NCBI RefSeq assembly: GCF_964204645.1 | Contig: NC_134026.1 | Coordinates: 15,100,150 to 15,164,149 of the forward strand | Length of the DNA stretch: 64,000 bases | DNA from: Tubulanus polymorphus | Lineage: Eukaryota > Animalia > Nemertea | Direction: 5' to 3' | In this document: one piece after another, positions 1-42,099 of the stretch | Layout: every line of letters starts with the position of its first letter | How positions within the stretch are numbered: the first letter of the stretch is position 1 | Notes under the pieces: model-generated | What the model saw: only the letters and a program-made list of their open reading frames with translations | What the model was told of the DNA's origin: nothing | Databases searched by the model: none | Program-made: the position numbers and the translations under genes

Positions 1-898
1 AACCAACATATCAAATCCTAATGAACTGCATAGTATATTTTATCCTGATATAGCAACTTTCCCTTTTTGTATCAAAGATATAGTTTTCTGTTTTGTAAAT
101 TTTTTAGTGCCATCTGCAGCATAGAATCCAATGAAGAACCATTTTCTTAAATTATCTTTTGCATTTAATACATAATCTGGTACTATCTTTTCTTTAGTTG
201 AAGTATTACTTTTCACTATTGCATGAATATAGAATTCATCATTACATTTAATTGCAAAATCTTTAGTATTATTTACTTGTATATTATAAATTGCTGATGA
301 TTTCATAAAATCTATGATTTTAAATGTTTTATTTGGGTAAACTTCTTCACAGTATTTCTTTATTCTTTCTAATAATTTCAAATCTTGATTACATAAATAC
401 CAACAATATTGAGTTTTATTAACATGCTTATACACACCTGCTGAACCATAACCCATAAAAAGATCCTTAAATAAAATATTCTTTTTCTTCCAATGTTTCT
501 GGTTCTATATTACAAATATTATCAATGATTTCATCAAATGACATAGGGTTTATTCTTGGATAAAATCTTTTATGTAATAATTCATCCCCAATTTTTATAT
601 TAGTTGGTTTAATTTCATCACCATTTCGTTTAATTAAGCTATGATCTTCTGTAACATCTACAAACCCTAATTTAGTTCTAACTCTACAGATTTTCTTATT
701 TGTTTTATGCCTAATTATATTCTTTACTTTTTTCCATCCATTTCTTGTCCAATCATCCATTAATCCATTTATTTGTATTAATTCTTTTTCACCATATGAA
801 ATATAGAGTTCATTTTGTTTTGGAATTATTTCTGAAATTCTTCTTATTAATATTTGGTTATTGTATTTTAATAATATTGGGGTATCAGCTGTTACAGA
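1..898 (-). pseudogene. Intein (Hint + LAGLIDADG homing endonuclease) inserted in pPolB motif C; disrupted, C-terminus outside window
   Basis: Extein ...EILYFD is followed by SVTADTPILL (block A) and VTEDHSL (block B TxxH). LAGLIDADG-like helices FMGYGSAG and FFIGFYAADG follow, then a block-H-like LCSSLG. Stop/frameshift near 457-469 and a stop at 40-42. Confidence 0.85.
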
Positions 899-1366
899 AT
901 CAAAATATAATATTTCAATATGCTTTTCCCCGAAAAGTGGTTGTAAAACATTATAATAAAAATCATACATTAATAATTTTGATATTTCTAAAACAGTTGA
1001 ACCAATGAATATAGGTTTATTAAATTTCATTGACGTTCTTTTTAATTTTACCGCGGTTAAATAATCTTCAAATCTTTTATTTCCTAAATGTCTAGGACTT
1101 GATTGTCTTAATCGTTCAGAATCATTTACTAATTCAATATCATTTCTATTTCTAATATTTTCACATGTTTTTCCATAAAAACTATTATTCATTAATTTGA
1201 AGAAATCTTTTTCAAAATCTGTTTTAGATATGGTTCTCTGTTGATTTTTAAAATCTATATTTTTCTAACCACTTCGATTGATTAAATTCCATATATCTAT
1301 GTACTTTCTTTAATTTCATTCCTTGTTTTAGATAAAATTTTAACATTCTATAATGACCAATATAAT
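899..1366 (-). pseudogene. pPolB of Polinton A, palm region
   Basis: HYRMLKFYLKQGM, MNNSFYGKTCENIRNR (motif B) and KPIFIGSTVLEISKLLMYDFYY, with a frameshift near 1250. Closely similar to 51550-52225. Confidence 0.9.
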
Positions 1367-1416
1367 TAGGGTTTTCTGTTACATCACAGAAAACCCTATT
1401 GAGATTCGCGTGTTTC

Positions 1417-1417
<1 letters not shown>

Positions 1418-1451
<34 letters not shown>
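1418..1451 (+). repeat. (ATT)n microsatellite of the HINE
   Basis: About 11 ATT/TTA units directly after the terminal palindrome. Confidence 0.9.
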
Positions 1452-2487
1452 TTTTACCACACATTTTTTGTCAAAAGTACATAGGCTTTTTTACATTACC
1501 GCTGTTGCCGATACAATCCGTCTAATATCATTAAGCTCAGTACGATCTACAAATACTCCGTGCGAATTTTGAAGAATCAACGTTACAAAAGCACTGTCGG
1601 GCCGTAAACATCGAAAATTGAGCCCCATTCAAAGAGCCGACATGTTTTTCTAAGTCGTCTTGCCGAAATCTACCGCACGTTTCTTGTCACATCGATTATC
1701 AATTCAAGCATAAATTAACAAATTTATTACCGAAAGATTGCACATTCTGTCGCGGTTTTTAAAAACTAATTTTAACAGTAACCCATTTTCCTCATCAAAT
1801 TATATTACTGATACACAGGAAATATACTACTTTAGATTTTAAAAGCACTGTCGAGCCGTAAACATCGACAAATCGACGTGTGTCACTACATCGTCGTTCC
1901 GGGAATCAGCTGCGAGTTTCTCCTCATTCTGAGAATCAAATCGAGTACAAATTAATTTATTACTACCAGTGATTTGGCTGCGGGCGTCAAGCAGTTAATT
2001 TAGCAATACCTATTTTTCTTTACCAAATTTACCGTGTTTTTACTAAGATAAATCATAAGTGTACCGGGGAGTCGTAGGCCTTAACTAAACACGCCGAAGA
2101 GATATAGCGGAGAAAAGCTGTTATGTCGACGAGGTATCAAAATAAAAGAATACATTACTTTATTCGGCCGCGGCCCTCTATATCAATACCATCAATACTC
2201 TATATTTCCTACAGTACATACCGATCATTGTCAAATCCACAAGGTATTTACTGAATACAAGTATATAACACACTCCTATCCGTATGCTGGACTCACACTT
2301 GACATTCGGAGTAAGCGTTCGCAGTGGGGGAAAGGAGATCGTTCGCTGTGTCGCTTGAAGTGTTTATCGAGTTTTACGCGACCTTAAAGCTTTAGTATGG
2401 TGGCTGATAAGATAAAAAAACACGAATATGCAAATAAGGGCGACATTACGACAAAACGACAAAACTAAAATAACGCGAGAAAACAAT

Positions 2488-5057
2488 GATTTTGATTTTG
2501 TCGCCCGCGACAATTCATTATTTTGGTTTTATCGCCCACGACCATTCATTACTTTGGTTTTATCGCCAGCGACAATGCATTATTTTGGTTTTGTCGCCCC
2601 CGACAATTCTTCTTTTTGGTTTTTTCGCCCGCGACAATTCATTATTTTGGTTTTATATTTTGTTTTTGTCGCCCGCGAAATTTTTCTTTTTTGGTTTTGC
2701 CGCCTGCGACAATTCAATATTTTGATTTTATCGCCCGAGACAATTCAATATTTTGGTTTTATCGCCCGCGATAATTCATTATTTTGGTTTTGTCGCCTGA
2801 GAAAATTCATTATTTTGGTTTTATCACCCGCGACAATTCACCATTTTGGTTTTGTCGCCCGCGACAATTCACCACTTTGGTTTTGTCGCCCGCGACAATT
2901 CATTATTTTGGTTTTATCGCCCGCGACAATTCATTATTTTGGTTTCATCGCCCGCGACAATTCATTATTTTGGTTTTGTCGCCCCGACAATTCTTTTTTT
3001 GGTTTTGTCGCCCGCGATAATTCATTAGTTTGGTTTTGTCGCCCGCGACAATTCAATATTTTTTTATTTTATCGCCCGCGATAATTCATTATTTTGGTTT
3101 TATCGCCCGCGACAATTCATAACTTTGGTTTTATCGCCAGCGACAATGCATTATTTTGGTTTTGTCGCCCCCGACAATTCTATTTTTGGTTTTGTCGCCC
3201 GCGATAATTCATTAGTTTGGTTTTGTCGCCCACGACAATTCAATATTTTTTTATTTTATCGCCCGCGATAATTCATTATTTTGGTTTTATCGCCCACGAC
3301 AATTCATTACTTTGGTTTTATCGCCAGCGACAATGCATTATTTTGGTTTTGTCGCCCCCGACAATTCTTCTCTTTGGTTTTTTCGCCCGCGACAATTCAT
3401 TATTTTGGTTTTATATTTTGTTTTTGTCGCCCGCGAAATTTTTCTTTTTTGGTTTTGCCGCCTGCGACAATTCAATATTTTGATTTTATCGCCCGAGACA
3501 ATTCAATATTTTGGTTTTATCGCCCGCGATAATTCATTATTTTGGTTTTGTCGCCTGAGAAAATTCATTATTTTGGTTTTATCACCCGCGACAATTCACC
3601 ATTTTGGTTTTGTCGCCTGCGACAATTCACCACTTTGGTTTTGTCGCCCGCGACAATTCATTATTTTGGTTTTATCGCCCGCGACAATTCATTATTTTGG
3701 TTTTATCGCCCGCGACAATTCATTATTTTGGTTTTATCGCCCGCGACAATTCATTATTTTGGTTTTGTCGCCCCGACAATTCTTTTTTTGGTTTTGTCGC
3801 CCGCGATAATTCATTAGTTTGGTTTTGTCGCCCGCGACAATTCAATATTTTTTTATTTTATCGCCCGCGATAATTCATTATTTTGGTTTTATCGCCCGCG
3901 ACAATTCATTATTTTGGTTTTGTCGGCCGTGGCAATTCATTATTTTAGTTTTATCGCCCGCGACAATTCATTATTTTGGTTTTATCGCCCGCGACAATTC
4001 AATATTTTGGTTTTGTCGCCCGCGACAATTCAATATTTTGGTTTTGTCGCCCGCGACAATTCACCATTTTGATTTTGTCGCCTGGACAATTCACCATTTT
4101 GGTTTTGTCGCCCGCGACAATTCATTGTTTGTGTTTTGTCCCCCGACAATTCTTTTTTTGGTTTTGTCGCCCGTGACAATTCATTAGTTTGGTTTTGTCG
4201 CCCGCGACAATTCAATATTTTGGTTTTATCGCCCACGACAATTCATTACTTTGGTTTTATCTCCAGTGACAATTCATTATTTTGGTTTTGTCGGCCGTGG
4301 CAATTCATTATTTTAGTTTTATCGCCCGCGACAATTCATTATTTTGGTTTTATCGCCCGCGACAATTCAATATTTTGGTTTTGTCGCCCGCGACAATTCA
4401 ATATTTTGGTTTTGTCGCCCGCGACAATTCACCATTTTGATTTTGTCGCCTGGACAATTCACCATTTTGGTTTTGTCGCCCGCGACAATTCATTGTTTGT
4501 GTTTTGTCCCCCCGACAATTCTTTTTTTGGTTTTGTCGCCCGTGACAATTCATTAGTTTGGTTTTGTCGCCCGCGACGATTCAATATTTTGGTTTTATCG
4601 CCCACGACAATTCATTACTTTGGTTTTATCTCCAGCGACAATTCATTATTTTGGTTTTGTCGCCCGCGACAATTCTTGTTTTTGACGCCCGCGACAATTC
4701 ATTATTTTGGTTTTATACTTTGTTTTTGTCACCTGCGACAATTTTTTTTGGTTTTGTCGCCCGCGACAATTCAATATTTTGGTTTTGTCGCCCGCGACAA
4801 TTCATTATTTTGGTTTTATCGCCCGCGACAATTCAATATTTTGGTTTTATCGCCCGCGATAATTCATTATTTTGGTTTTATCGCCCGCGACAATTCAATA
4901 TTTTGTTTTTATCGTCCGCGACAATTCATTAAAATTTTGGTTTTGTCGCCCGAGACAATTCATTATTTTGGTTTTATCACCCGCGACAATTCATTATTTT
5001 GGTTTTGTCGCCCGCGACAATTCATTATTTTGGTTTTATCGCCCGAGACAATTCATT
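2488..5057. repeat. 31-bp satellite array (consensus ATTTTGGTTTTRTCGCCCGCGACAATTCATT)
   Basis: About 80 tandem 30-31 bp units, with higher-order blocks repeated at 758 bp (2523 vs 3281) and 368 bp (3976 vs 4344). All ORFs here are repeat artefacts. Confidence 0.97.
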
Positions 5058-5083
5058 AATTTCATTAATTGCTAATGACTTAA

Positions 5084-5406
5084 GCCGGACGTAGGTCGGC
5101 TTTGCGACGGCTTGTGACTGCGACGCCATTCGCCAGCGACGATTGTGTCGCAACGACTCCTCGACCTACGCTCCCTTGCGACGGGTTGCGACTGTCAGCA
5201 ACGCCAGTCACAAGGAGTCGCACGTGTTCTGCGACGTTCTTCTTTCTGCGACGCGACACGACTGTCACAACCGACCTACACGCTCTTGCGACTGGCAGAA
5301 ACTAGTCGTACACAGTCGCTGACAATCGTATCGCAACCGACTTGCGCCGAAACTTACGATGCAACGCGAGGATCGCATCGCGACGCAAGGCCGAACTACG
5401 TCCGGC
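5084..5406. mobile_element. MITE with ~25-bp TIRs flanked by TTAA
   Basis: TTAA|GCCGGACGTAGGTCGGCTTTGCG ... CGCAAGGCCGAACTACGTCCGGC|TTAA. The TSD could be TTAA or TA; superfamily not resolved. Confidence 0.8.
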
Positions 5407-5890
5407 TTAAGGTTACTGCGGAGCCCCAGAAATATCTTTTTTTTCGTTCATAGGACCTTTCGCTTAAAAATTCTTTCGTCGGAACAAAATTTATTTCGTT
5501 CCAACAAATAATATTCTGTTCGATTGAACCAATTTGAAAAAATCGTTAGACCATCAGAACATCAAGTTTTTCGTTCGAACAAGTATATTGTCAAAAGTTT
5601 TTTCTCCAAACCAAAATTATTAAGTATTTCGTTCAATTGTACAGAATTGTTATCATTCAAACATTCATTCCAAAAAATTGTTTTTGATCAACCAAATTTT
5701 TTTAACCGGGACAAAGTTTTTCATTTCAACAATAACATAGCTTTTTATTCGAACACATTTTTTGTCAGAATGAAGAAAAGTTTTGGTTCAAACAAAAAGC
5801 GTATTGTTTGATCAAACAGAATTGTTTTCATTCGAACACGATTTTCTTGTCGGAACATTAAGTTTTTTGGTCGAACAGCGTGTGAAGGTC

Positions 5891-6080
5891 ACGACAATTC
5901 AAGATTTTGGTTTTATCGCCCGCGACAATTCATTTTTTGGTTTTGTCGCCCGCGACAATTCAATATTTTGGTTTTATCGCCAGCGACAATTGATTATTTT
6001 GGTTTTATCGCCCACGACAATTGATTATTTTGGTTTAAACGCCCGCTTCGACAATTCATTCTTTTGGTTTTGTCGCCCAC
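5891..6080. repeat. Continuation of the 31-bp satellite
   Basis: About 6 further units of the same consensus. Confidence 0.9.
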
Positions 6081-6087
6081 TTTATTA

Positions 6088-7030
6088 GCTATATATCGCG
6101 ATATATCGTGTCAAGTCGACATGAATATGTCGACATATCGTGACGTTTTCACGACAAATTTCGCTTTTTTACGGAAGCGATAAAAGGCCTCGAGATGTCG
6201 CGTTCCAACTCGACAAGTCGCCATATTTATGTCGGCATACCGCGATATATCGCGTCAAGTCGACATGAATATGTCGATATATCGTGACGTTTTGACGACA
6301 ACTCGAGGCCCTTTATCGCTTCCGTACTTTTTCGCCCATTTTCCACGGGACAAGCCGTCATTTGAAGACACGTTGAAATGTAAGATGAGGACGCCAGTAA
6401 TATGGCGACTGTACGGAAGCGATGAAGGGCCTCGAGTTGTCGTGTTCAAACTCGACAAGTCGCCATATTCATGTCGATATATCGCGATATATCGCGTCAA
6501 GTCGACATGAATATGTCGACATATCGTGACGTTTTCACGACAAACTTCGCTTTTTTGCCCATTTTCCACAGGACAAGCCGTCATTTGAAGACATGTCTAA
6601 ATGTAAGATGAGGACGCCAGTGATATGACGACTGAGTTTCAAGTCGTCATGAATATGTCGACTTGTCGCGAGGAAAATGGTCATGAGAACGAAATATGTC
6701 GTCAAAACGTCACGATATGTCGACATATTGATGTTGACTTGACGCGATATATCGCGGTATGTCGACATAAATATGGCGATTTGTCGAGTTGGAACGCGAC
6801 ATCTCAAGGCCCCTTATCGCTTCCGTACGACTGAGTTTCAAGTCGTCATGAATATGTCGAATTGTTGCGAGGAATATGGTTGAGAAAACGAAATATGTCG
6901 TCAAAACGTCACAATATGTCGACATATTCATGTCGACTTGAAGCGATATATCGCGATATGTCGACATAAATATGGCGACTTTGTCGAGTTGGAACGCGAC
7001 AACTCGAGGCCCCTTATGGCTTCCGTACTT
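6088..7030. repeat. Foldback-like repeat: tandem CpG-rich units followed by the same units inverted
   Basis: ATATCGCGTCAAGTCGACATGAATATGTCGACATATCGTGACGTTTT at ~6100, 6248 and 6489; its reverse complement at ~6705 and 6903. Confidence 0.8.
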
Positions 7031-7918
7031 CCGTATATATGGGACCCGTACAAAACCGTCGCGACCTTTTATCACGACGAAATTATGTCGAACAAATTTG
7101 ATACATCGCGATTTATCGACATAATTAAGTCGATATATCGTGTTAATATCACGATAAATCGTTATACGGATCACGCCTTTCACCAATCTCGACGTCTGTA
7201 TCTCAACATAACCGCGTACCGTCGACATAATTATCACCCCTTTAGCTAAAATGTCGTGATACGTATGGCAATTTATTGAGACAATATCGCAAAAAATTCG
7301 ACATAAAAATCACGACATTTTAAATAAGGTCTTCCTAGTTACATCGATATATTGAGATAGTTAACATAATTTCAATAAGGGGACGCATACTTAATGATGT
7401 TTAATGTTAGATGAATATGAAAGAAGAAATGAAGTTGGCAGAAAAATTAAAATGACTTTATCATCACCAGAATCTGGTGGACATATTGAATGTTGGGGTT
7501 CAGGTAGAATACCCCAAATGCTGGGGCACAATAATAGTGTTCGGTACATGGTCAATGAACTAAATAGGTCATTCGCATCAATACTTTGTCACAATTGATT
7601 TGCGGTATATTTTGGATTACTGTGTATGTCATTTGTCAGGACATGAAACAGTAGAAGACTTAGGATACTACCTAGCGTGACTCCACTACTTAGAACTTAT
7701 TCCAAGATGAGGCGTTCCGTTGATTTTGGCTATTTTGGTTTTCGTTCAGAGATAACTGCTGAGCCATTTGGGCGACCTATCATTGATACTGTTTCCTAAT
7801 AGCCTGTTTAGTTAGTAATGGCTGATGTTGTGCCTTATCAAATGCTTTGTCGAAATCCACCGATGAACAGGATTCTAAGACAGCAGAAAACCCGTTATCG
7901 CTGCTTTGCAGCTATATT

Positions 7919-10900
7919 TGTATTTATTATTTTGAGTAAGTATTAATTTTTCTGTATAAACATGATCTTTCGGTTTTATTTTCTTCTGGTATTCACTTAA
8001 ATAACTATCATCAACGGCTAAATGTTCTGGGCAATATGGTAAGTTTCTTGTTTTAAACTTTATGTTATCAGGATATTCTTAATCAACTACAAAGAAATTA
8101 CCAATTGTTGCTTCATCTTCTAAACTCATAATTGCGCTTTTCCAATTCGTTTTATCATCATTTTCAACTTCTGCTAATATAAAATTTTTGTATGGTTGAG
8201 GTTGCATCATTTGCCCAACCATATAAATTATTGGCATCAATATATAATAATTTATATTCATCATTTGCTTTAAAATGTCTATCTCCCATAACACCACTAA
8301 TTCCACCTCTAATTGATTTTTCAAATAATAAAACCATGTCTGGTTCTTTTAATAAATCTAATTCTACATTTGTATATTTTAAACCACATTGCCAAGTTAA
8401 ACCAGGACTTGAATAACAAAAGCAGGGATCAACATTAAAATGATTCAAATTAACTTCTCTAAATTTTTCAAATATGTCAGTCAATATCATAACATCTGAT
8501 TCCAAGTATAAATCTACTAATTCACCATGATTTTCTATCATAAAATGATTCCAAATATTCAATGTTCTATTAGAAACTTCATCTTTCACATACTCCTCTT
8601 TTAATTGATCATAAAATTGTTCTTTTAATAATTCTGTTACATTAAAATCATCATGTGTTTTATAAAACGAATAAGGAATTGCGCCTTTATATCTCAATAA
8701 TTTAAAATCTTGTTCATTTGGATAATAATGTCGAGTTATTATAAAATCATTATCAACTAAATTTTTGCTAAATTATCTAATGAACTTGCTAGAAATCTAT
8801 AAGAATCTAAAAATCTAATGCAACCAAATTGAAATGAAATATAATTTTCAGATGTCTTAGCTAATAGTTTAAAATCATATTTTCTTACATTTGCTTCATT
8901 CATAGCATTATATTCTTCTATTTCTTGATTAATTGCGCCCAATTTTCCTGATAATTGTTTTATAAATAGATGGGTATCATAGCCTGATAATTTATGAAAT
9001 AATATTGGTACGAAATTAGCTTTCTTAGCTTGTAAATTGCAATCTTCATGAGCAGCGCCACGGTATTTTGAATTTAAATGATCGTGATCTCTAACTTTTT
9101 TATCAAATGAATAAAAACGTTTTTCACAGTAACAACAATGAGTTGCATAATCAAAATCAATTTCATCTTCTTTTTTCATAACTATTCTTTTATTTTTGTT
9201 TAATAATTGTGCGAAATCACTTTCTAATTCAATTATTTTGTTACAAAAATCATTAACTACATCTTCACCTCTAAAAGAAATATATTAACTTTCATATAAT
9301 TCAGGATAATTTGATTTTATATAAATTCCATAAGCAGCAGCTCTTTGATGAACTTTTTAAATTGTATTTATAATTGGTGGGTCTTGAATTATATCTTCAT
9401 TTAGTTCATTTTCTTTATCCATTGATTTTAAAAATAGTTTTTTGTTATATATTTCTTTTCTATCTTGATCAGTTAATTCTTTATTCAACGATTCAAAATC
9501 CCCATAAATTACAAATGGAACAATATTTTTAAATTTATGATTAGTAAATTTCAACTTACAATCTTTTTTTGTTGGCATTATTAATTTACAAAAATCTTTA
9601 TTATCACATAATTCTTTATGTTTTAGTAACGCATTTTCTGTCATAAATTTAGATAAACATTTTCTACGTAGATAAATTTTATTATGATGGTCACTTTCTT
9701 TTCTAAAGAATAAATCAATTTGTTTTAACCACATATAATGTTCATTTTCATCTTTTTTGTAATATAACAAATCTATAACATTTTCATCATCATAATATTC
9801 TGTTAAATATAAAGCTTCTAATGTATAATCTTTAATATTTTCACCTTTTGTATCTGGTAATTGCATTAATTCGAATACATTTATTTTTAAATTATTAACT
9901 TTTTCTATTTTAGGAATAATTTTTATAGTTACTGGATATTGATCAATTTTATATAATGTTTCATATTTCCGGTAATTTGTTTTTCTACAAACATGTTCTT
10001 CTGTTGCGTGTAAGCAACTAATAATTGACCATAGAAACATTTACTATCTTCATTTTGAACATTTATTACTGCTTTTGTTGTAAATGGATGCGTTAATATC
10101 CTTTTCTGTTGTAAAGTTTGAATCATTTTTAAACATTTTATTACTTTTTGATGTTTTATTTCTTTTTGTATTATAAACATTCAAATATAAAAATATAATT
10201 TCATTTAATGATAAGCCAGAACCCTCAAAATATCTTTCCTCAATATGACGTTTAAATTCATTAAATATTTTTTCTAATTTCGCTTTTATTTGTGTTTTTG
10301 ATATTGTTTCTTCACAGTGTGTTTGAATATTATAATCCATTTTTTCTTCTGATTTTACAAAACTTACTTTCCCAGAGATACTAATTTTTGGATATTCAAC
10401 ATCTGTAATAAAGTCCATTATTTTTTCCATGATTTCAATAAATTTACTATAATCTTCTATTGTTGCTCCTTTAAAAAATCTAAATATAATAGCTGCTGGT
10501 CCAATATTACTACGTAATGTTTCTAAAATTTCAATTGTATCTTTTATTTCTAGTGAATCGATATAATTTCTTACATTTTCCATGTAAGGTTTATTTGAAA
10601 TAGATTTAGTTTTTGAAACTGGTTTTTTTACTTGTTGAGGTTTATTATCAAAATAATCTGTTCCTAAAACATTATTACTTAAATTTTGTTTGTGTTTTTG
10701 CGATTCGAGATGTCTTTTATAATTCCTTTTTGCTATAAATTCATTACAAACTTCACATTTTATTTCATCCATATTCATATTTTCTAATTGTTCTTTTCTT
10801 TCATTGGAATTTTCTGGAGTTTCAAAATCTATAACATTTTTTATATGATTTGCAGTTTTTTCATGTCGTGCTTTATGAGATTTATCAATGTATTTTTTAC

Positions 10901-10940
10901 AACATGTACAATAATATTGATTTTCATTAACATCATTGTT
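7919..10940 (-). pseudogene. pPolB of Polinton A, N-terminal/exonuclease/motif A part (multiple stops and frameshifts)
   Basis: C2H2-like fingers (CEVC...HLESQKH), IYGDFES (exo I), CCYC...DHDHL...GAAHEDCNL (endonuclease VII-like), RFLDSYRF, and YIDANNLYGWAM (motif A). Confidence 0.9.
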
Positions 10941-11499
10941 TTCTGTCTGGTACTCACTATCTCCAATTTATTAGGGAAAAAAATTACCCGTGGTGATGAG
11001 TGGTGTGTCGCCCTCTCGCCCTCTGGTCTGAAACCCTGATATTCCAATTACTGGTACATTGTATATTCTTTTGGTCTTTTTAATTTATCTCACCTAAATC
11101 TATTCAATCCGTTTGTGTAAGCCTACAGTATTAGTACACTGTTGGGACAAATGGAAAACATGGCATAATAACGAAATTGGCATTATAAAGAATGGAACTT
11201 TCATCAAATTTGGGTTAGATTGGGCAAATTTGTTCTCTGAAATGGCATTTAGTGAGCAATGGCAATAAAAAGGATCGCATTATAATGAACTTTGAATTTA
11301 ATAACTATAAGGAAGAGGGCCTACCTGATTCATTAACTACTGCAGCGGCTGATGTCCAACGATGTGAATTTGCATTTACTGTTGAAATGTAGGTCGTGTC
11401 AGTACCTTGAAGAACACTGCCAGCATACTGTTGAATACACGTATGCAATTGAATGAAATTTGTTAAACAATGATCAATAATATTGAAATTAAACAAATC

Positions 11500-14533: not shown

Positions 14534-14555
14534 TAGGGTTAGGGTTAGGGTTAGG
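14534..14555 (+). repeat. Interstitial telomeric tract (TTAGGG)~3.5 at the BEL/PLE junction
   Basis: TAGGGTTAGGGTTAGGGTTAGG. Confidence 0.9.
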
Positions 14556-14669
14556 TTTAGAGATAGAGGTTAGGGGACCAAACCGAAGGTTTGGAGACCC
14601 CACTAGTGCACGGGCAGCGGGTTATCCCTGTAAAAAAGTAGTGAGAGTTAATTGTTGTAGTGAGGCGGT

Positions 14670-17007
14670 CTACGGGACGTTCATGCCTCGGGGTGTGTTC
14701 GTGTCGAGTCGTCGTATCCAGTCTTGTTCGGCTGCTTCGCGGATCGGTCTCGTGGAGCCTGGTAGGTGTTGGAGACCGTACACCCGAAAGTGTTCGCGGG
14801 TGTGGTCGGCTTGGTTGAAGTGGTCCGAGACTGGAGTCGAATTCTTCGTTCTGATGCGTGAGACGTGATGAGTGACGCGTTCTCGTAGAGACATTCCGGT
14901 TTGGCCGACGTACAGCATGTTGCACTTGGTGCATTCGATGCAGTATACAATTTCACGGGTCGCGCAATTAATTGTGCTGCGGATCGCGTGCATTTTGTTG
15001 TGGCTGCGGCAAACGGTTGTTTCTCGGACGAGTGGACACGTACGACATCTCGGTGTTCTGCATTTCTTGGTGCCTCGACGTCGGGTTGACGGAGTTCTTT
15101 GAGTAGACCTGGAAATAGAAGAATTGGAAACAACGGAAGTATTTCTGTTACGATGCGGTGAAGAGGGGACTCGGGGAGGGGGTGGCTCCGTGGGTTTGAG
15201 CTGCGACGAAGTTAGGAGATCTTTGAGACTCTTGTGCTTGGTGTAGGCGGTGACCGTGGTTACCTCGTCAGACCGGCCGGTGGCCGTAGCCAGTTCCGTA
15301 AATCTGGTTTGATTTTATTTTGATGTGTCGCAGTTCGCGGTCTTTGTAGCCACGACCTCTGAGTACTTTAAGGACGGTTCCGGACGCTGCGTGTAAGTCC
15401 GAATCGTTATTGCAGATGCGCCGGAACCGGAGAATTTGACTTTTAACTATACCGGAAAATGTGTGTTTAGGGTGAAACGAGGATCGATGTAGTAATTGAT
15501 GCGAATCGGTTGGTTTGAAGTAGACTTTGGTGTCTACTGTGCCACTTGTCTCGAATTGCGGGCCTTTGAAAGTGGTTACGTCCAGGAAGTTGACGCTGGT
15601 GTCGCTGATTTCGAACTTGAGTTTGATGGATCGGCTCACTGTTTGTAGGACGTCGATGAATTGCATCAACGTTTCGCGGCCGTGTTCCCAAACTATGTAG
15701 ATGTTGTCGATGAACCGAGCGTATAGCGATGGTTGGAGTTCGCTTCTGGACAGACCTTCTTTTTCCCATTCGGCTACAAAGATATTGGCATAAGAAGGAG
15801 CAAAACGCTTACCCATTGCGGTACCTTTTACCTGTAAATATGTGTTTTCGTTAAAGTTAAAGTCGTTTTTCTTCAGGCTGATTTCGAGTAGTTTCAGCAG
15901 CTCGGCATCCGGGCGTCCCGGGTTTGGGTTATCTCGGAGAGCTTGTCGGATGCTGGCGATACCCTCTTCGTGGGGGATGTTGGTGTAGAGCGAATCGATG
16001 TCCATGGTGACGAGTAACGCATCGGCGCTAAATTGTTTACCGGCCAAAATATCTAGAAAGTGGTTGGTATCTTTGACGTACGACGGGTGACCGCGGGCGA
16101 TCGGCTGCAAATAGTAGTCGATCCATTCCGAAATTTCGTAGGTTTCGGAGCCGCAGTCGGAGACGATCGGTCTCCCCGGCGGTACGCGATCGGGTACCGT
16201 CCACTTCTCGCGTTCTTTATGGATTTTGGGAAGCAGATAGAACTGCCTCTGTTTCGGATTATCGGGCGGTAATAGATATTCGGCGGTTTTTAGCGGGATG
16301 ATTTTTCGTCGAGCCATATTTTCGATGATTTCGCGAATTTCTTCCCCGGTCTGTTCGAAGATCGGTTGCTGCAGCGGCTGATAATACTCGAGATCGGCTA
16401 GTTGGAGCATGGCTTCGTGGACGTAGTCGTCGCGGTCCATGATAACCGTAGCGGAACCCTTATCGGCGGCTTTGATGACAATATTAGTGTTGTCACGCAG
16501 CTGCTGGAGGGCTTCGCGTTCCTGTTTAGTGAGGTTATCATTTACGCGACGCGTATCCCTGGTTTGTTGAGCCAATTCGTGCGCGTCGTTGCAGAACCCG
16601 GCGATTACTGGTTCTATTTCATCCGGAGCCCAACTGCTGGGCAGACGGAAACGCGGAGCCTCGCGGTCCGGTTTGTCTCGGAAGTGATGGTCGAGTTTCA
16701 CTAGCCGGTTGAATCGGCACACTCCCTTGGTGCGCTCGGTCGCGGCGGCATCAGAACCGATTTTTGGAGTCGGGCAATAAGTGAGGCCCTTTCGGAGTAG
16801 CTGATGTTGCGCCGGACTTAGGCGGAGTGAACGTGTGAGGTTGACCACCGGGCTCCCGAGAGCGGTGACCGGATCGCGTCGCGCTTGGTTTGGTGCCGGT
16901 TCTTCGTGTTCGTCGGACCTGGAAATGGAAGAAATCAGAGAAGCATTGGTTAATTCCGGTTGATTTAACTCACCAATAGTGGACCCGTTGGTCTCACTAA
17001 TACTTAG
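14670..17007 (-). pseudogene. PLE unit 1 ORF2 (RT + GIY-YIG), disrupted
   Basis: Catalytic FIDD changed to FIDN. A ~120-bp deletion with filler near 15310 causes a frameshift before the GIY-YIG domain. Confidence 0.9.
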
Positions 17008-18563
17008 TTTAAACCACTGAGCCAGTGGTCCAGCAGGGTGTTAGCTGTACCACGGTTCCAGTGGATCCCGTCTCCAACAACTCTGAAGCGTCGATCATCG
17101 ATGGGTGGTATCGCGGTGACGTCGTCGTGATTCTCGAGGAATTCGTTGAACTTCCGGGCGAACTGCTGGTGTTCGCGGGTCGTGTTGAGTTGAACGAAGT
17201 GGACGAACGAGTGCTGATACTTCTTGACTGCGGCGTTGATCAGGCGCTGTGTGGTCTTCCTGGCGGTCGCTTCGAAGTTGTTGTCGCGGTTGTTGATTCC
17301 GACGCTGATGATCACCGTATCCGGGCGATCTCGGCGCTCCGGTACAGCATCGATCAGGTCGGCGAGATGAGCTATCTTGCAGCCGGGGAAGCTCTCGATC
17401 TGGACGTCATCCGGACGGCGGCTTGATGTGATGTTACTCAGATTTGAGTCACCAATCACCAGAATGGGTCGCCGGGTTGGTGGCAGACTCCAATCCTGTT
17501 TCTTCCGACCCGTATTCGGATGACGGCGAACTTCCTGGGGCGCCATCGGTCTCGGTGTTGGCGTCGGACTTCGCGCTGGCAGTAGGCGCCCTGGTGACCT
17601 GTAATGAGACGGAGAGCTGGAAAGAGAAGAAGAGAGAGACGGCGTCGGACTGCTGGTTGGTGCGGTCGGCGTTCTCTGCGGCGGCGGCGGCGTCGGGTTT
17701 CGAGGCGGCGGCGTCGGACTTCTCGGTGGCGTCGGACTTCTTGGTGGCGGCGGCGGCGTCGGCATCGGACTTCTCGGTGGTGGCGCCATTCTGGTTGGTG
17801 GCGTCCTGGTGACATCCGCGTAGCTTCTCGGTGACCTGGAATCAGAAAAAGAAGGAGGCGCTGTGGGCGCGGCGGGCGCGGCTGCGGTTGGTGCAGGCGT
17901 CCTCGGCGTCGCGGGCTTTCGAATCTTCCGGCTCGGTCTCGGCGGCGGACGAATCTTCGGCTCCGTGGGTGCCTCCTGGTGGTGTGACCTGAAATGAGAA
18001 GGGGAAGAAGGTGGGTTAGATAGGACATTTCTGAGTTTGTCAGACAGAGCCTGACCGCGGAATTTCGACCGCAAATCCAGCGCGATGTTGAAAAGCCGGA
18101 TCGTTCCGGGGCTCAGACGGGAGCCGAAATTCCTCCGGGCCCATGTCAGGGCGACATCCTGTGCTGATAGACAGTCCGGCAGAGGATCACCCATTAGCTC
18201 AACAAATGTGGCAGCGTAATGGATGGTCAGCTCTTTCGAAACTGTCTCCATCCAGACGTCCGCGGCAGCGTGCAGCTGCACCGTTACTGCTTCGGTGCAA
18301 GCCGCCGGCCGCAGGAACATCTTCAGATGGTCCTTCTTCCTCCGAATCGCTTTCGGACCAGAGCTCAACTGGGCAAGGTGGTGCGCCACTTGAAGAGCTC
18401 TATAATAGGTTTTCGGCGACATCCCGGGTTGCTGGTGTCGCTCAGGGCGTCCTCCGCCCTTGCTGGTCTTCTCAGCTGGTGGTCGTTTCTTCTTTCGAGT
18501 AGATCGCTCCATTGACAGATATTTCGGCGAGGTTGCCTTCGTCAGTGTCAGTGCAGGAATCAT
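17004..18563 (-). CDS. PLE unit 1 ORF1: basic N-terminus, Pro/Ser-rich repeats, C-terminal SGNH/GDSL hydrolase
   Basis: ILVIGDSN (block I), SFPGCK (II), ISVGINN (III), GDGIHW (V); RSPTPPP repeats; 519 aa open. Confidence 0.85.
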   Translation of the reverse strand: MIPALTLTKATSPKYLSMERSTRKKKRPPAEKTSKGGGRPERHQQPGMSPKTYYRALQVAHHLAQLSSGPKAIRRKKDHLKMFLRPAACTEAVTVQLHAAADVWMETVSKELTIHYAATFVELMGDPLPDCLSAQDVALTWARRNFGSRLSPGTIRLFNIALDLRSKFRGQALSDKLRNVLSNPPSSPSHFRSHHQEAPTEPKIRPPPRPSRKIRKPATPRTPAPTAAAPAAPTAPPSFSDSRSPRSYADVTRTPPTRMAPPPRSPMPTPPPPPRSPTPPRSPTPPPRNPTPPPPQRTPTAPTSSPTPSLSSSLSSSPSHYRSPGRLLPARSPTPTPRPMAPQEVRRHPNTGRKKQDWSLPPTRRPILVIGDSNLSNITSSRRPDDVQIESFPGCKIAHLADLIDAVPERRDRPDTVIISVGINNRDNNFEATARKTTQRLINAAVKKYQHSFVHFVQLNTTREHQQFARKFNEFLENHDDVTAIPPIDDRRFRVVGDGIHWNRGTANTLLDHWLSGLN

Positions 18564-19259
18564 GCTGAACTAGCAGCAGCAGCAGATAAAAAAGACAAAC
18601 GCGCGGAGCGCGTTTTTAATGCTCGAGAGTGGTGGCCACTCTCCTACATTCAGGACGCGTAGGTGCATGATTATTTGCTTGATATGATGATAGGTATATG
18701 AGTTGAACTATTATGAGATGAACTAAGGGGGATGTGGGTGGTGTGATATTTGTGTGAGTGTGAAGGTACTGGTGGAAGGATTCAAACAAAGGTACATACA
18801 GAACGGACAGTTTTTATTTTTTAGGCGTTTTTGTTTGGTTCGGTCCTTATCAGGAGTTTGTTAGTGATTAGTTATAATATTTTTTTTTTTTTTTTTTTTT
18901 TTTTCTATAAATAGTGATTAATATAATACGTATATATCACAAGAGTCTATGATATAATATATGGTAGATATATATGTATATAATATGATACACAAAAATA
19001 GTGATTTTCCTCCGTTAAGGGGAGTCGCGATATAGTTAGAATACTTTGTCAATTACTATATACAAAACTTATAATTTCTTAGAAATGTTAATAAGAGTAT
19101 ATAGTTCTACTGCATATAGTTCGGTTCACGTGATGTGTTGTGTAAGGAGTAGCGACCTAGATACGGGCTACCTATATAGTTCTTGTAACACAAAGAAATC
19201 TTCCATTCAATTCTCCGACTACGCGGGTGTCGGTTCGTAGTAGAGTACACGCTATAGAG

Positions 19260-22807: not shown

Positions 22808-22822
22808 ATCATGCTGAACTAG

Positions 22823-25021
22823 GATTAGACACGGGTTTTTATACACGCAGCGCGCAACAAGTGAACAGTATTTGAGTTAGAAGTTAAGTGACCATATGAG
22901 ACCTTGTGATCTAGACTAATTGTACTTCTGTGATCAAGCTAATAGACAAACTAGGGGTCTGACTAATTATGCCTTTGATCCAGAGTGACTAGAAAACAGC
23001 ACTAATTATGGCCCTTGATCTAGCTGTTGAATAGTTTGCTTTGATGTATAGTTCTAAAGATCTAAAGAACGGCGTGTCTAATATAGAATTGAAAAGTTTA
23101 TTTCGATATAACCTGATAAATACTCAAAGTGTTTTCTATAAAGAGAAATCTAGAATATGTATTATTAATATACGTGAACCGGAATGTTCGAAATATGTCC
23201 GAGTTCAGTTTCAAAATTGCTTAATTCCTAATTAGTTTAGATGCGTTAATTAGCGGTGCGCGGCCGAGGCGTATTCCGATATACGCGTGTATACTAAATA
23301 GTCGTAAATGGTGAAATCCGGTTCTTAGTTAATCAAGTTTTCTCCGTATTCTAAAGCTTTTAAGAGCGGATTTTGAAATATCTACGCGGTATTCTACCGA
23401 AAATTGGATGAATTAGACAGCGCGGCGTCGGCGATTTAGTAGGAAGTTATAACCCGTAAGATCTAAATTACTGAGTGAGCGCGGGTGGTTAATTAGCCCT
23501 AATTATGGGTGACGAGTTTTGATAGAAATGTCTTACTAATACGTCTGTTTTAATTCTAAGTTCTTAAATATAATTCTATTAGATAAACTACGCTTATTTA
23601 GAGTTATTAGGATCGAGTAAAGCTATGTGAACTTGAACATGTGACAAATATATTCAGACCGGAGCGCGGGTATTCAGTAAATCGGTTTAAGCTTGCGTAG
23701 TTTGAGTGGTTCAAAAACACTATGATCTCTTCTTTAATCCGAAGGTTGAAATATATACGTGATATAAAACTCTTTTTGAATCGGGAATATTGGGCTGTGT
23801 TCTTTGAAAAAAAAAAACTGATGAGTTTGAAGGCGTCGTAACTGCGATTTTGTATAGAATTGAGTCGGATAATTAGTCAAGAGGCGCAGGTGGCCGATCG
23901 GTCACTAATTATGAGTGACTCGTAAACAGTGATTGATGTCCGTGGACTATTATTTATCCTATAAACTTCTTATACTTCTACAACCTATAGTGCGGTTTTT
24001 GAATATAGCTACTAATACTTTTGAGCGATCTCATTAGAATTGTTATGCGAAAATAAACTGTCTGTTTTAGAGAAATTTGAAACTTGACACCCGGGTCTAT
24101 ATAGAGTATGTTCCAAGAGTTGGCGCGTAGATACGATAATAGTTAATTAGGACGTAGCGGGTTAGGTCCCCGACCGAACGTTATAGATTAAACGGAGGTT
24201 AATTAGGGTGCCGCGGGTTCGAGTCCCGACCAGGCGCCGTTTAGTAATTGAATAGTTCTATTCTAAATGTTTTTTACCTATTCTGGATTCCTTTTAATTC
24301 TGAATCTTTGACGGATACAATAGTACTTTTCAGATGTTTCTACGATATAATCTTAGTGCCGACGCATATTTTCAAAATAAATAAGAGCGGTGGACAGGTT
24401 ACCGGTATCTAACGCGGGGCACCGGCAACCTGTCAGTACTAGCGGTTAATTTCGGAGCGGCGGGTACGGTTCCCGAGTATTCTCCGGAGCTTAATTCGGG
24501 TGCCGCGGGTTCGAGTCCCGATCAGGCGCGCCGTTTTAGTAATTGAGTATATTCTTACCTATTCTAGATTCCCTTTCTTTCTAAATTTATAATAGATTAA
24601 TTAATACTTTTCGGGTGTTTCTATGATATAATCACAGTGCTGACGCATATTTTCGAAATAGATAATAGCGGTGGACTGGTTACCGGTTTCTATCGTCCTG
24701 GGACAGGCAACCAGTCTGTACTAGCGGTTACGGTTCGGTTCCCGATATCGCGCTTTTGTTTATTTTTCTAACTGTTTCTGATATTTGGTCTGTCTTCTTA
24801 CTTACTGAATTTCGATTGAGTTTTCAAAGTAAAGCAGAGAGAACTAATTAAAAGATAAAAGGTTGATGATTCCTGTGGAGCTTGTGATCTTGGAGTTTGT
24901 TTTGTACTCTGTCTCTGAGCGGGTTTCTGCTTCAGGCGACGGAGGATGATTCTGCAAATAGATTGATGATTAATAATTAATCAGTTAAGATAATTTACGA
25001 GGGAAACCTGGCACGGGCTAA
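22823..25021 (-). promoter_or_regulatory. PLE unit 1 long non-coding leader (~2.2 kb), probably intron-containing
   Basis: Repeated at 29139-31284; no long ORF. Donor-like sites CA|GTAAGT (24805) and AG|GTAAGA (24558); acceptor-like TTCAG just before the ORF1 ATG; internal ~290-bp duplication. Confidence 0.6.
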
Positions 25022-25142
25022 GGTTAGGTTTAGAGATAGAGGTTAGGGGACCAAACCGAAGGTTTGGAGACCCCACTAGTGCACGGGCAGCGGGTTATCC
25101 CTGTAAAAAAGTAGTGAGAGTTAATTGTTGTAGTGAGGCGGT

Positions 25143-27602
25143 CTACGGGACGTTCATGCCTCGGGGCGTGTTCGTGTCGAGTCGTCGTATCCAGTCTTGT
25201 TCGGCTGCTTCGCGGATCGGTCTCGTGGAGCCTGGTAGGTGTTGGAGACCGTACACCCGAAAGTGTTCGCGGGTGTGGTCGACTTGGTTGAAGTGGTCCG
25301 AGACTGGAGTCGAATTCTTCGTTCTGATGCGTGAGACGTGATGAGTGACGCGTTCTCGTAGAGACATTCCGGTTTGGCCGACGTACAGCATGTTGCACTT
25401 GGTGCATTCGATGCAGTATACAATTTCACGGGCCGCGCAATTAATTGTGCTGCGGATCGCGTGCATTTTGTTGTGGCTGCGGCAAACGGTTGTTTCTCGG
25501 ACGAGTGGACACGTACGACATCTCGGTGTTCTGCATTTCTTGGTGCCTCGACGTCGGGTTGACGGAGTTCTTTGAGTAGACCTGGAAATAGAAGAATTGG
25601 AAACAACGGAAGTATTTCTGTTACGATGCGGTGAAGAGGGGACTCGGGGAGGGGGTGGCTCCGTGGGTTTGAGCTGCGACGAAGTTAGGAGATCTTTGAG
25701 ACTCTTGTGCTTGGTGTAGGCGGTGACCGTGGTTACCTCGTCAGACCGGCCGGTGGCCGTAGCCAGTTCCGTAAATCTGGTTCGGATGTTACGGGCTAGG
25801 GTTCGGTTGGCTTCGGAGTGAGGTAAGATAAGCGGTAAACGCTTTTTCGGCGGTTCGTCGGCCCGTTGTTGTTCTCGTAGATCTCGTTCGGCGTGGTGCC
25901 GTAGAGCTTGGCTTTTGATGTGTCGCAGTTCGCGGTCTTTGTAGCCACGACCTCTGAGTACTTTAAGGACGGTTCCGGACGCTGCGTGTAAGTCCGAATC
26001 GTTATTGCAGATGCGCCGGAACCGGAGAATTTGACTTTTAACTATACCGGAAAATGTGTGTTTAGGGTGAAACGAGGATCGATGTAGTAATTGATGCGAA
26101 TCGGTTGGTTTGAAGTAGACTTTGGTGTCTACTGTGCCACTTGTCTCGAATCGCGGGCCTTTGAAAGTGGTTACGTCCAGGAAGTTGACGCTGGTGTCGC
26201 TGATTTCGAACTTGAGTTTGATGGATCGGCTCACTGTTTGTAGGACGTCGATGAATTGCATCAACGTTTCGCGGCCGTGTTCCCAAACTATGTAGATGTC
26301 GTCGATGAACCGAGCGTATAGCGATGGTTGGAGTTCGCTTCTGGACAGACCTTCTTTTTCCCATTCGGCTACAAAGATATTGGCATAAGAAGGAGCAAAA
26401 CGCTTACCCATTGCGGTACCTTTTACCTGTAAATATGTGTTTTCGTTAAAGTTAAAGTCGTTTTTCTTCAGGCTGATTTCGAGTAGTTTCAGCAGCTCGG
26501 CACCCGGGCGTCCCGGGTTTGGGTTATCTCGGAGAGCTTGTCGGATGCTGGCGATACCCTCTTCGTGGGGGATGTTGGTGTAGAGCGAATCGATGTCCAT
26601 GGTGACGAGTAACGCATCGGCGCTAAATTGTTTACCGGCCAAAATATCTAGAAAGTGGTTGGTATCTTTGACGTACGACGGGTGACCGCGGGCGATCGGC
26701 TGCAAATAGTAGTCGATCCATTCCGAAATTTCGTAGGTTTCGGAGCCGCAGTCGGAGACGATCGGTCTCCCCGGCGGTACGCGATCGGGTACCGTCCACT
26801 TCTCGCGTTCTTTATGGATTTTGGGAAGCAGATAGAACTGCCTCTGTTTCGGATTATCGGGCAGTAATAGATATTCGGCGGTTTTTAGCGGGATGATTTT
26901 TCGTCGAGCCATATTTTCGATGATTTCGCGAATTTCTTCCCCGGTCTGTTCGAAGATCGGTTGCTGCAGCGGCTGATAATACTCGAGATCGGCTAGTTGG
27001 CGCATGGCTTCGTGGACGTAGTCGTCGCGGTCCATGATAACCGTGGCGGAACCCTTATCGGCGGCTTTGATGACAACATTAGTGTTGTCACGCAGCTGCT
27101 GGAGGGCTTCGCGTTCCTGTTTAGTGAGGTTATCATTTACGCGACGCGTATCCCTGGTCTGTTGAGCCAATTCGTGCGCGTCGTTGCAGAACCCGGCGAT
27201 TACTGGTTCTATTTCATCCGGAGCCCAACTGCTGGGCAGACGGAAACGCGGAGCCTCGCGGTCCGGTTTGTCTCGGAAGTGATGGTCGAGTTTCACTAGC
27301 CGGTTGAATCGGCACACTCCCTTGGTGCGCTCGGTCGCGGCGGCATCAGAACCGATTTTTGGAGTCGGGCAATAAGTGAGGCCCTTTCGGAGTAGCTGAT
27401 GTTGCGCCGGACTTAGGCGGAGTGAACGTGTGAGGTTGACCACCGGGCTCCCGAGAGCGGTGACCGGATCGCGTCGCGCTTGGTTTGGTGCCGGTTCTTC
27501 GTGTTCGTCGGACCTGGAAATGGAAGAAATCAGAGAAGCATTGGTTAATTCCGGTTGATTTAACTCACCAATAGTGGACCCGTTGGTCTCACTAATACTT
27601 AG
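25143..27602 (-). CDS. PLE ORF2: reverse transcriptase + Cys linker + GIY-YIG endonuclease (Neptune-like); no ATG start, frame open back to the ORF1 stop
   Basis: KAADKG, YLLPKIHK, GRPIVS, DIDSLYTNIP, GTAMG, RFIDD, FLD; CRTPRCRTC linker; IVYCIEC..C...YVGQT...R..HH, E.DWI..LDT..PRGMN. Confidence 0.95.
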   Translation of the reverse strand, partial: LSISETNGSTIGELNQPELTNASLISSISRSDEHEEPAPNQARRDPVTALGSPVVNLTRSLRLSPAQHQLLRKGLTYCPTPKIGSDAAATERTKGVCRFNRLVKLDHHFRDKPDREAPRFRLPSSWAPDEIEPVIAGFCNDAHELAQQTRDTRRVNDNLTKQEREALQQLRDNTNVVIKAADKGSATVIMDRDDYVHEAMRQLADLEYYQPLQQPIFEQTGEEIREIIENMARRKIIPLKTAEYLLLPDNPKQRQFYLLPKIHKEREKWTVPDRVPPGRPIVSDCGSETYEISEWIDYYLQPIARGHPSYVKDTNHFLDILAGKQFSADALLVTMDIDSLYTNIPHEEGIASIRQALRDNPNPGRPGAELLKLLEISLKKNDFNFNENTYLQVKGTAMGKRFAPSYANIFVAEWEKEGLSRSELQPSLYARFIDDIYIVWEHGRETLMQFIDVLQTVSRSIKLKFEISDTSVNFLDVTTFKGPRFETSGTVDTKVYFKPTDSHQLLHRSSFHPKHTFSGIVKSQILRFRRICNNDSDLHAASGTVLKVLRGRGYKDRELRHIKSQALRHHAERDLREQQRADEPPKKRLPLILPHSEANRTLARNIRTRFTELATATGRSDEVTTVTAYTKHKSLKDLLTSSQLKPTEPPPPRVPSSPHRNRNTSVVSNSSISRSTQRTPSTRRRGTKKCRTPRCRTCPLVRETTVCRSHNKMHAIRSTINCAAREIVYCIECTKCNMLYVGQTGMSLRERVTHHVSRIRTKNSTPVSDHFNQVDHTREHFRVYGLQHLPGSTRPIREAAEQDWIRRLDTNTPRGMNVP

Positions 27603-27608
27603 TTTAAA
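27572..27608 (-). promoter_or_regulatory. Candidate -1 programmed ribosomal frameshift signal (also at 16977-17013)
   Basis: GGT TTA AAC TAA gives an in-phase U_UUA_AAC heptamer, followed by a 7-nt spacer and hairpin TAGTGAGACC-AACG-GGTCCACTA. The -1 frame is ORF2. Confidence 0.8.
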
Positions 27609-29128: not shown

Positions 29129-29138
29129 GCTGAACTAG

Positions 29139-31284: not shown

Positions 31285-31584
31285 GGTTAGGTTTAGAGAT
31301 AGAGGTTAGGGGACCAAACCGAAGGTTTGGAGACCCCACTAGTGCACGGGCAGCGGGTTATCCCTGTAAAAAAGTAGTAAGAGTTAATTGTTGTAGTGAG
31401 GCGGTCTACGGGACGTTCATGCCTCGGGGCGTGTTCGTGTCGAGTCGTCGTATCCAGTCTTGTTCGGCTGCTTCGCGGATCGGTCTCGTGAAGCCTGGTA
31501 GGTGTTGGAGACCGTACACCCGAAAGTGTTCGCGGGTGTGGTCGACTTGGTTGAAGTGGTCCGAGACTGGAGTCGAATTCTTCG
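31285..31584 (-). repeat. PLE upstream pseudo-LTR (3' 300 bp of a further 5'-truncated unit)
   Basis: Near-identical to 25022-25321 (end of GIY-YIG + 3' tail); abuts Polinton B polB. Confidence 0.9.
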
Positions 31585-34500: not shown

Positions 34501-34615
34501 TATTGTTTTCTGGCTGGTGTTCATTCTCCCCCATTTATAAGGAAAAAAAATTACTTGTGGTGATGAGAGCTAGTACTCTCGTACTCTGGTATGAAAGCCT
34601 ACTTTTCCAATTACT
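31585..34615 (-). mobile_element. Polinton B (same family as A): terminus + fragmented pPolB, truncated by the PLE chain
   Basis: ORFs 33617-34345, 32490-33458, 32136-32480 and 31585-32149 are closely similar to A. Terminus ...TTTTCCAATTACT ends at 34615. Confidence 0.9.
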
Positions 34616-35430
34616 GGTAAGACTTGTGAAAATATCAGAAATAGAAATGATATTGAGTTAGTTAGCAATGGTAAAAGAATTAGACATTTACAAACATATC
34701 CTAAATTCATTGGTAACAGAATATTTGATGGAAATTTAGCTGCAGTTAAAATGAGAACTTCTATGAAATTTAATAAGCCAATTTATGTTGGTGCTTCAGT
34801 TTTAGAAATATCAAAGTTATTAATTTATGAATTCTATTATAACGTATTACAACCTCATTTTGGAGAAAAACATATAGAAATCTTATATTTTGATACTGAC
34901 AGTTACATATTGAAGATAAAAACTAGTAACACAACAGATGATTTAAAAACATTAAAACATCATTTCGGTTTTAGTAATTATCCGAAAGATCATGAATTGT
35001 TTAGCAATGATAATAAAAAGGTGCCCGGGAAGTTTAAGGATGAATTAGGAGGTGAAGAAATGATAGAGTTCATTGGAATTCGAAAAATATAAAAATGTAT
35101 TCATATAAAACTAAAACTCATGAAGCTAAAAAGTTAAAAGGAATTACTAAAATTGTAGTAGAAAAGAATATTCATTTTAAAGATTACATCAATTGTATAT
35201 TTAATGAAGAAGTTAGAAAACATAAGATGAAATGTTTAAGATCAGAAGATCATGAAATGTTTATTGAAGAGATAGAGAAGATAAGTTTGAATCCTTTCGA
35301 TGATAAAAGATATATTTTGGATGATGGAATTCATACAGTCGCGTATGGTTGCAATTTAGAAGAATACTTAAAATTTAAAAGAGAAGAAGAGAAAGAAAAG
35401 GAAATAATGAACAGGATTATAACGTGTTAA
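34616..35430 (+). pseudogene. pPolB C-terminal part (intein-free), Polinton C
   Basis: GKTCENIRNR, EILYFDTDS, KKVPGKFKDE, KMYSY, KLKGI, LNPFDDKRY; frameshifts. Confidence 0.92.
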
Positions 35431-35439
35431 TAAAAATAT

Positions 35440-38128: not shown

Positions 38129-38135
38129 AAAAAAG

Positions 38136-39968: not shown

Positions 39969-40011
<43 letters not shown>

Positions 40012-40860: not shown

Positions 40861-40999
40861 ATATTATATTTATACTCGTATCATTCTTCCAATTCGTATG
40901 TTTAGAAGTTAAATATATATATTATTACACTCGTCCACTCGTACCATTCTTCCAATTCGTCCACTCGTCCATCAATATGTAAATAGAAATTAATCTTTT

Positions 41000-42075: not shown

Positions 42076-42099
42076 TAGAATTTTTTATTAAAACTAAAA

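Follow-up and report, generated by a model that had tools for sequence, protein, structure and literature searches.

On the minus strand, positions 898 to 1 of the window (the whole 64,000-nt stretch of DNA analysed here) code for a LAGLIDADG intein that begins with Ser; 298 of its ~354 residues, counted from the N-terminus, fall inside the window. The intein interrupts motif C (YFD|S) in the protein-primed polymerase (pPolB) of a Polinton. We consider it very probable that this is a decayed intein of the pol-c type, belonging to a lineage that likely passed from giant viruses into Polintons on a single occasion and then likely spread among them by homing. The allele itself is known, and it is the host class, the Polinton pPolB, together with the genomic setting for which we found no earlier report.

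The polymerase fragment that bears the insertion (copy A) includes an N-extein at 899–1368 (minus strand, 77% nucleotide identity to a second polymerase, copy E). Motif B of the pPolB lies at ~1198, the N-extein closes with the first Asp of motif C, and it contains a frameshift near 1258. The insertion lies between the Asp and the Thr of motif C, i.e. at the pol-c or position III site, and the junction is formed by the Asp codon at 899–901 and the Ser codon at 896–898, with which block A starts. EILYFD|SVTADTPILL and VTEDHSL are present, as originally noted, and share one minus-strand frame (467–1264), which starts in pPolB motif B. The N-terminal splicing (Hint) region, with the block A Ser and block B TEDH (641–652), occupies 570–898 (minus), and the intein continues in a second frame (40–504). 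Two LAGLIDADG-like motifs had also been proposed; sequence reading and tblastn confirm the second as intact (109–129, minus, in the second frame), whereas a frameshift interrupts the first (~445–480, minus), which also has a substitution at the catalytic position. With a frameshift at 452–489 and an in-frame stop at 40–42 after the second motif, copy A has no open frame with two acidic-residue LAGLIDADG motifs. Judged from these breaks, the intein and its polymerase are both pseudogenes here, and copy A is capable of neither splicing nor homing, the latter because its endonuclease is broken.

That the insert descends from a true intein follows from its unbroken homologues. The first 144 residues were used as query against 5.8 billion proteins, which yielded 325 proteins from 528 candidates. 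The best match, P0001, is an unbroken protein of 1693 aa with DNA_pol_B_2, LAGLIDADG_3 and Intein_splicing (Pfam), and its intein of 354 aa reads YGD|SVTSDTP at the start and GFPLIISN|TDS at the end. It is 65% identical to the insert over 144 aa (E 1.4e-50), and tblastn aligned P0001 residues 1184–1481 with positions 1–898 in two frames (62% identity, and 55% over 163 aa in the second frame), giving 55–65% identity between the two inteins. On these alignments the similarity is not due to chance. Positions 1–898 thus correspond to the N-terminal 84% of the intein and run off the window, so that the C-terminal junction is expected 56 residues (~170 bp) outside it, and the far junction rests on homologues. 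Two short records come nearer to copy A than P0001 does, each at one end. P0320 (71%) has the junction HIEILYFD|SVTADTP, identical to that of the window; in P0259, which is the closest C-terminal relative of copy A among the matches listed (77% identity with the second piece across 90 aa), the intein finishes with N|TDA, after which the polymerase resumes.

The structure of the P0001 intein was modelled from a 57-row alignment (pLDDT 90.6, pTM 0.91), and its best Foldseek matches in the PDB are intein structures, TliVMA (E 4e-17), PI-PkoII (6e-17), PhoVMA and PI-PfuI (to 3e-14). Among viral models, those closest in fold are the PolB proteins of a phycodnavirus, Pandoravirus, Marseillevirus and Megavirus. 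Hence, the expected Hint fold is present, as seen on the modelled P0001 intein rather than on copy A. The Pfam search gave a divided answer: P0001 is matched for both Hint and LAGLIDADG, whereas the pieces of copy A alone stay under the curated cut-off (Intein_splicing, E 0.0013–0.0046, with 0.0013 for the Hint region at 570–898). Together, the insertion site and the kinship with same-site inteins bear out the proposal of a pol-c (position III, YGD|TDS) Ser-type LAGLIDADG intein in a Polinton pPolB.

Because the region is heavily rearranged and the far junction lies beyond the window, one might suppose an assembly chimera, or stray giant-virus DNA inserted beside a Polinton fragment. We regard this as extremely improbable. 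The fusion is in frame and falls exactly at motif C, the same junction recurs in the independent P0320 and P0001, and the G+C content of the copy A intein (25%) is near that of the exteins (22–24%). Moreover, a pPolB extein was found beside the intein at none of 120 viral or metagenome loci (the best 80 of 131 metagenome loci, with viral scans of 18, 4 and 19); the genomic context of unbroken pPolB inteins is thus not seen in these loci. With P0001 as query no locus was returned from viral contigs, and a scan of prokaryote genomes gave no match.

The preferred reading, an intein resident in a decayed Polinton, also agrees with the organization of the window. DNA_pol_B_2 matches on the window pieces, as on P0001, identify a protein-primed PolB of Polinton type. 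At 7914–11056 (minus) lies an N-terminal part, likely of the same pPolB (zinc finger, Endonuclease_7 and exonuclease; Pfam DNA_pol_B_2 and Endonuclease_7), which is broken by 6 in-frame stops in 4 HSPs. Since this part and copy A abut within 7 bases when aligned on copy E (51726/51732), they likely formed a single gene that was split by the 6.5-kb insertion at 1369–7913; the Polinton to which copy A belongs extends off the window. The insertion consists of hairpin, TTA repeat and 31-bp satellite arrays: a GGGTTTTCTG hairpin with (TTA)n stands at one end and the same motif near the other, with 77 copies of the satellite and nested inverted repeats at 6093–7028, and we take it to resemble a non-autonomous element of Helentron/HINE type.

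Copy C (34615–35431, plus), a broken C-terminal pPolB fragment, and copy E (48864–52734, plus), a whole-length but broken pPolB delimited by Pfam and nucleotide alignment, both read EILYFD|TDSY, as had been noted, with the Asp codons at 34892–34894 and 52193–52195. They had been taken for empty alleles nearby, a view that does not hold: they are 75–77% identical to A at the nucleotide level (75% for C) and 87% to each other, and as members of a sister family with an empty site they are not alleles of A. A second N-terminal pPolB copy of the family of A (31589–34619, minus, 91% nucleotide identity to 8019–11056) stops short of the intein site. At 34615–34619 this minus-strand family-A N-terminal polymerase is joined back to back with the plus-strand C-terminal fragment of the family of E, which is a rearrangement between two Polinton families. 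Just after copy C, a free-standing HNH-like ORF fragment occurs at 35701–35976 (HNH_4 E 0.079).

Other candidate Polinton genes all lie in neighbouring fragments. At 38130–40912 (plus), putative integrase pieces that include a chromodomain and are separated by a LINE fragment precede a fragment of an A32-type packaging ATPase (Chromo E 2.9e-5, Pox_A32 E 6.9e-5, rve_2 E 0.13, with further motifs recognized by reading), and the Pox_A32 match itself (40661–40810) belongs to a neighbouring element that has no link to copy A. A likely double jelly-roll capsid fragment (59598–60122, plus) was recognized by Atlas look-alikes only (Capsid_NCLDV and DJR-like_dom, with scores of 0.95–0.96 but of low recognition value); a homologous copy lies at 41926–42960 (minus), and Pfam named no family for most capsid-side ORFs. 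The structural-gene side of the Polinton is present in two opposite copies of 84–90% identity, at 41926–46796 (minus) and 52744–60510 (plus).

The remaining surroundings comprise DUF5641, which we take to be of BEL/Pao type and metazoan, retroelements with GIY-YIG, LINEs and satellite, and no host gene was identified in the 64-kb window. The nearest Atlas clusters of the polymerase are mostly from Arthropoda, with others from Mucoromycota and Mollusca. From the retroelements and the mostly arthropod clusters, an animal host is likely. Two Penelope-like elements (RT and GIY-YIG) at 14542–18573 and 25015–29138 are 98–99% identical, each with an upstream ORF that weakly matches a GDSL lipase, and 22808–25321 and 29124–31584 form a duplication of 2.3–2.5 kb with 97% identity; the pair and the duplication are either recent insertions or assembly duplication.

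Three protein searches, each contributing its best 120 matches, gave at least 339 distinct rows, and among the matches listed 38 of 339 join a pPolB extein to the intein and 7 of 339 have the extein only. A search of 50% representatives added no further pPolB host among 121 new rows. The fetched proteins include 29 complete pPolB inteins, near-copies counted, of 333–354 aa. Ser1, the terminal Asn, the +1 Thr and both acidic endonuclease-motif residues are kept in all of them, the block B TxDH in 27/29, and the residue before the terminal Asn is His, Lys or Ser. Across 8 representatives the endonuclease region (51.5% identity) and the splicing region (55.6%) are about equally conserved. One intein-bearing relative, P0249, is attributed by its source label to a MAG of Ca. 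Thiodiazotropha ‘ex Ctena orbiculata’; this is probably DNA of the symbiont's host that was binned with the symbiont, and as evidence on the origin of the intein-bearing Polintons it is no more than a hint. The empty pPolB relative P0340 has a C-terminal fusion to a deoxynucleoside-kinase-like domain (precomputed PF01712). Related Ser-initiated inteins were also seen in type II topoisomerases (P0017, P0027, P0029, P0030, P0046, P0081, P0100 and P0131), where they follow the Asp of the metal-binding loop, a second acidic active-site target for this intein group.

To place the lineage, 205 inteins were thinned by identity to 134 rows (16 hosted by pPolB, copy A included, 110 from the same site of other PolBs, and 8 topoisomerase inteins, on which the root rests), with the copy A intein read with X at its breaks. 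The ‘PolB’ label of these rows derives from precomputed PF00136 and junction patterns, applied without a row-by-row check, and since the searches began from this lineage, the outgroups are sampled with a bias towards its closest kin. In this quick tree the pPolB inteins form a single clade (SH-aLRT 100) nested among PolB inteins. A careful tree of 45 hand-picked rows, with 5 near-copies left out, supports the clade at 100/100 and the pairing of copy A with P0001 at 99/98. The sister group of the clade there consists of 11 PolB inteins (97/93), a link that stays open in the quick trees. Four members of the sister group match, fully or almost fully, inteins from contigs with a giant-virus MAG label, which is also borne by 17/19 viral loci that share the C-terminal signature of the clade. 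Trees and viral fold matches point to the PolB inteins of giant viruses as the closest kin outside the clade, in line with the link to large DNA viruses that was originally predicted.

The same prediction spoke of exchange with co-infecting large viruses, and here the trees point elsewhere. Repeated recent intein trade between Polintons and such viruses would account for the shared site and for nearest relatives in giant-virus PolB, and viruses have been argued to be intein vectors in the accessible parts of Ogata et al. and Gallot-Lavallee et al. (PMC549080, PMC10710043). However, all 16 pPolB inteins form one clade on a long stem (0.26–0.47 changes per column), no giant-virus intein falls inside that clade in the 134 rows, and the best identity of a giant-virus-type intein to that of P0001 is about 42% among the matches listed; we therefore hold such trade to be very unlikely. 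A single clade on a long stem fits one old acquisition from giant-virus PolB followed by spread among Polintons, and by this phylogeny the lineage likely entered Polintons once.

Within Polintons, part of the spread appears to be lateral. The pPolB of P0005, presumably of VSR type judging from its motifs (Pfam did not name the domain), has exteins that hardly align with those of P0001 (best E 0.019), and its intein is 46% identical (E 2e-99) and nests within the pPolB clade (99/92 in the careful tree), although an AU test did not reject a placement outside the other pPolB inteins (p 0.108). When mapped on an extein tree of 25 rows, the presence of the intein requires 6 changes, and starred branches force 4 or more of them; the count does not separate gains from losses.

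A footprint at the site itself was found in the P0126 cluster, of which 15 members out of 136 were listed, as proteins. Seven bear the intein, six are empty and two are short of the site, and the exteins of the listed members are 94–99% identical. Intein-bearing and empty copies differ by 1.4–1.5% upstream of −9, by 44% at −8 to 0, by 38% at +1 to +8, by 16–17% further on to +50 and by 3.8% beyond. All 9 fixed differences are within −6 to +44 residues of the site (0/200,000 random draws, under a crude null). In the seven intein-bearing copies the flanks have a single haplotype (0% difference at −8 to +8), similar to the one that accompanies the intein in other clusters. From these protein alignments, the pattern is consistent with homing in which a short flanking tract was co-converted. 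Among the six empty copies, motif C takes three forms, YTD|CDS in two, YFD|TDA in three and YGD|TDA in one, and such changes may represent target escape.

In the empty pPolB copies P0233 and P0235, Cys replaces the Thr between the motif-C aspartates, in polymerases that are otherwise 97–98% identical. In the P0252 cluster (15 listed of 121), the empty P0366 is 98–99% identical to the intein-bearing P0363 and has the same flanks. P0358 was considered as an empty twin of P0253 and rejected at 77% identity. In the window itself there is no clear sign of co-conversion near the site (27/30 for A against C and 24/30 for A against E closest to the site). The earlier suggestion of homing between intein-bearing and empty copies, which might take place between chromosomal copies or during free viral replication, agrees with the footprint in the related P0126 family and fails for copy A itself, which cannot home.

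The intein might instead be an old, purely inherited cargo. The empty copies would then have arisen without homing, the intein having been lost precisely or removed through recombination with relatives that lack it. For the Endonuclease_7-type polymerases the intein and extein trees broadly agree, so that much of the spread is vertical, and the two parts are about equally diverged (P0001 against P0126, extein 45%, intein 47%). Short-tract recombination from empty relatives could also produce local differences, and around the site the empty copies also differ from one another (23% at −8 to 0). However, relaxed selection would erode the endonuclease, and both of its motifs are kept in all 29 complete inteins; the seven intein-bearing P0126 copies have a single flank haplotype like that of other clusters; and P0005 requires a lateral step. 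On balance we consider inheritance alone improbable, if less so than the other alternatives, and continue with homing after a single entry.

Established intein chemistry assigns excision to four residues: Ser1, the His of block B, the Asn that closes the intein and the Thr that follows it. The unbroken relatives of copy A would accordingly splice by the class 1 route, with an acyl shift at Ser1, attack by the Thr+1 of TDS and cyclisation of the Asn, and the block B His would take part in excision. Splicing would rebuild the catalytic D-T-D loop of the polymerase, and an intein-bearing Polinton would for this reason need splicing to replicate. The endonuclease is predicted to cut empty motif-C DNA, and repair would then copy the intein with a short flank. 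Copy A would have been fixed in a host chromosome and have decayed along with its element.

Because a cell must contain two element genomes and express the endonuclease for homing to occur, the intein would mark recent Polinton activity. A bolder possibility, which we advance tentatively and regard as less likely than not, is that the homing element is active in animal genomes and drives through multicopy germ-line Polintons, from which empty copies escape by an altered motif C. This would constitute a natural gene drive and an arms race at a polymerase active site, and would make splicing in animal cells essential to intein-bearing Polintons. Families in which both states occur at 94–99% identity allow direct tests of homing, co-conversion and target escape. 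More generally, the pPolB clade would be a route for inteins, in many copies, into what are likely animal chromosomes, and would record an old gene transfer, with giant viruses as donors and Polintons as recipients, between two polymerase classes that differ greatly.

In the main texts of the openly accessible full-text literature, we found no account of a Polinton polymerase that carries an intein. The word ‘intein’ has no occurrence in PMC10748475, PMC11131425 or bioRxiv 10.64898/2026.06.19.733378, the accessible parts of PMC12220804 and PMC13768754 gave no such description, and the main text of PMC10710043 mentions none of Polinton, Maverick, metazoa or animal. The inteins listed in the supplements of PMC10710043 and PMC5784728 might include a Polinton case, and the accessible texts give none. 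Two reviews state, in their available portions, that metazoan genomes lack inteins (PMC5784728, PMC8529194), and eukaryotic-virus inteins are listed for large DNA viruses only (PMC5784728). It is against these statements that an intein in a likely animal Polinton matters.

Nuclease inserts, by comparison, have precedent: HNH and VSR inserts occur in Polinton pPolB2 according to the accessible text of PMC10748475, and in that of PMC11161782 Krupovic et al. guess that they derive from intein invasions. The host polymerase in the window likewise has an insert of Endonuclease_7/HNH type. No splicing domain is described for the pPolB2 inserts in those portions of text, whereas the Polinton intein is a separate, complete Hint and LAGLIDADG unit at the catalytic motif.

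The closest relative in design is the Mimivirus PolB intein, which represents the position III or pol-c allele also known from archaeal and giant-virus family B polymerases (PMC549080, accessible part). As far as that text describes it, it shares with the pPolB inteins the YGD|TDS site, the Ser start, the Asn end, the Thr at +1 and the LAGLIDADG domain, and its 351 aa compare with their 333–354 aa. The Mimivirus host is an RNA-primed PolB, whereas the inteins described here reside in the protein-primed pPolB (PF03175) of Polintons. The residues before the pPolB insertion vary (YFD, YMD, YLD, ASD, SSD, YSD and YGD), and, unlike the Mimivirus intein, the pPolB inteins are present in many copies in eukaryotic chromosomes. 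Inteins in endogenised viral-type DNA polymerases of Klebsormidium, Tetrabaena and Honda (PMC10710043, accessible part) are the nearest parallel in setting, being likewise viral polymerase inteins on eukaryote nuclear DNA. Those cases, as presented there, come from algae and a labyrinthulid, whereas the Polinton intein belongs to an integrase-bearing multicopy element, likely of animals, and differs from them in that intein-bearing and empty copies stand side by side.
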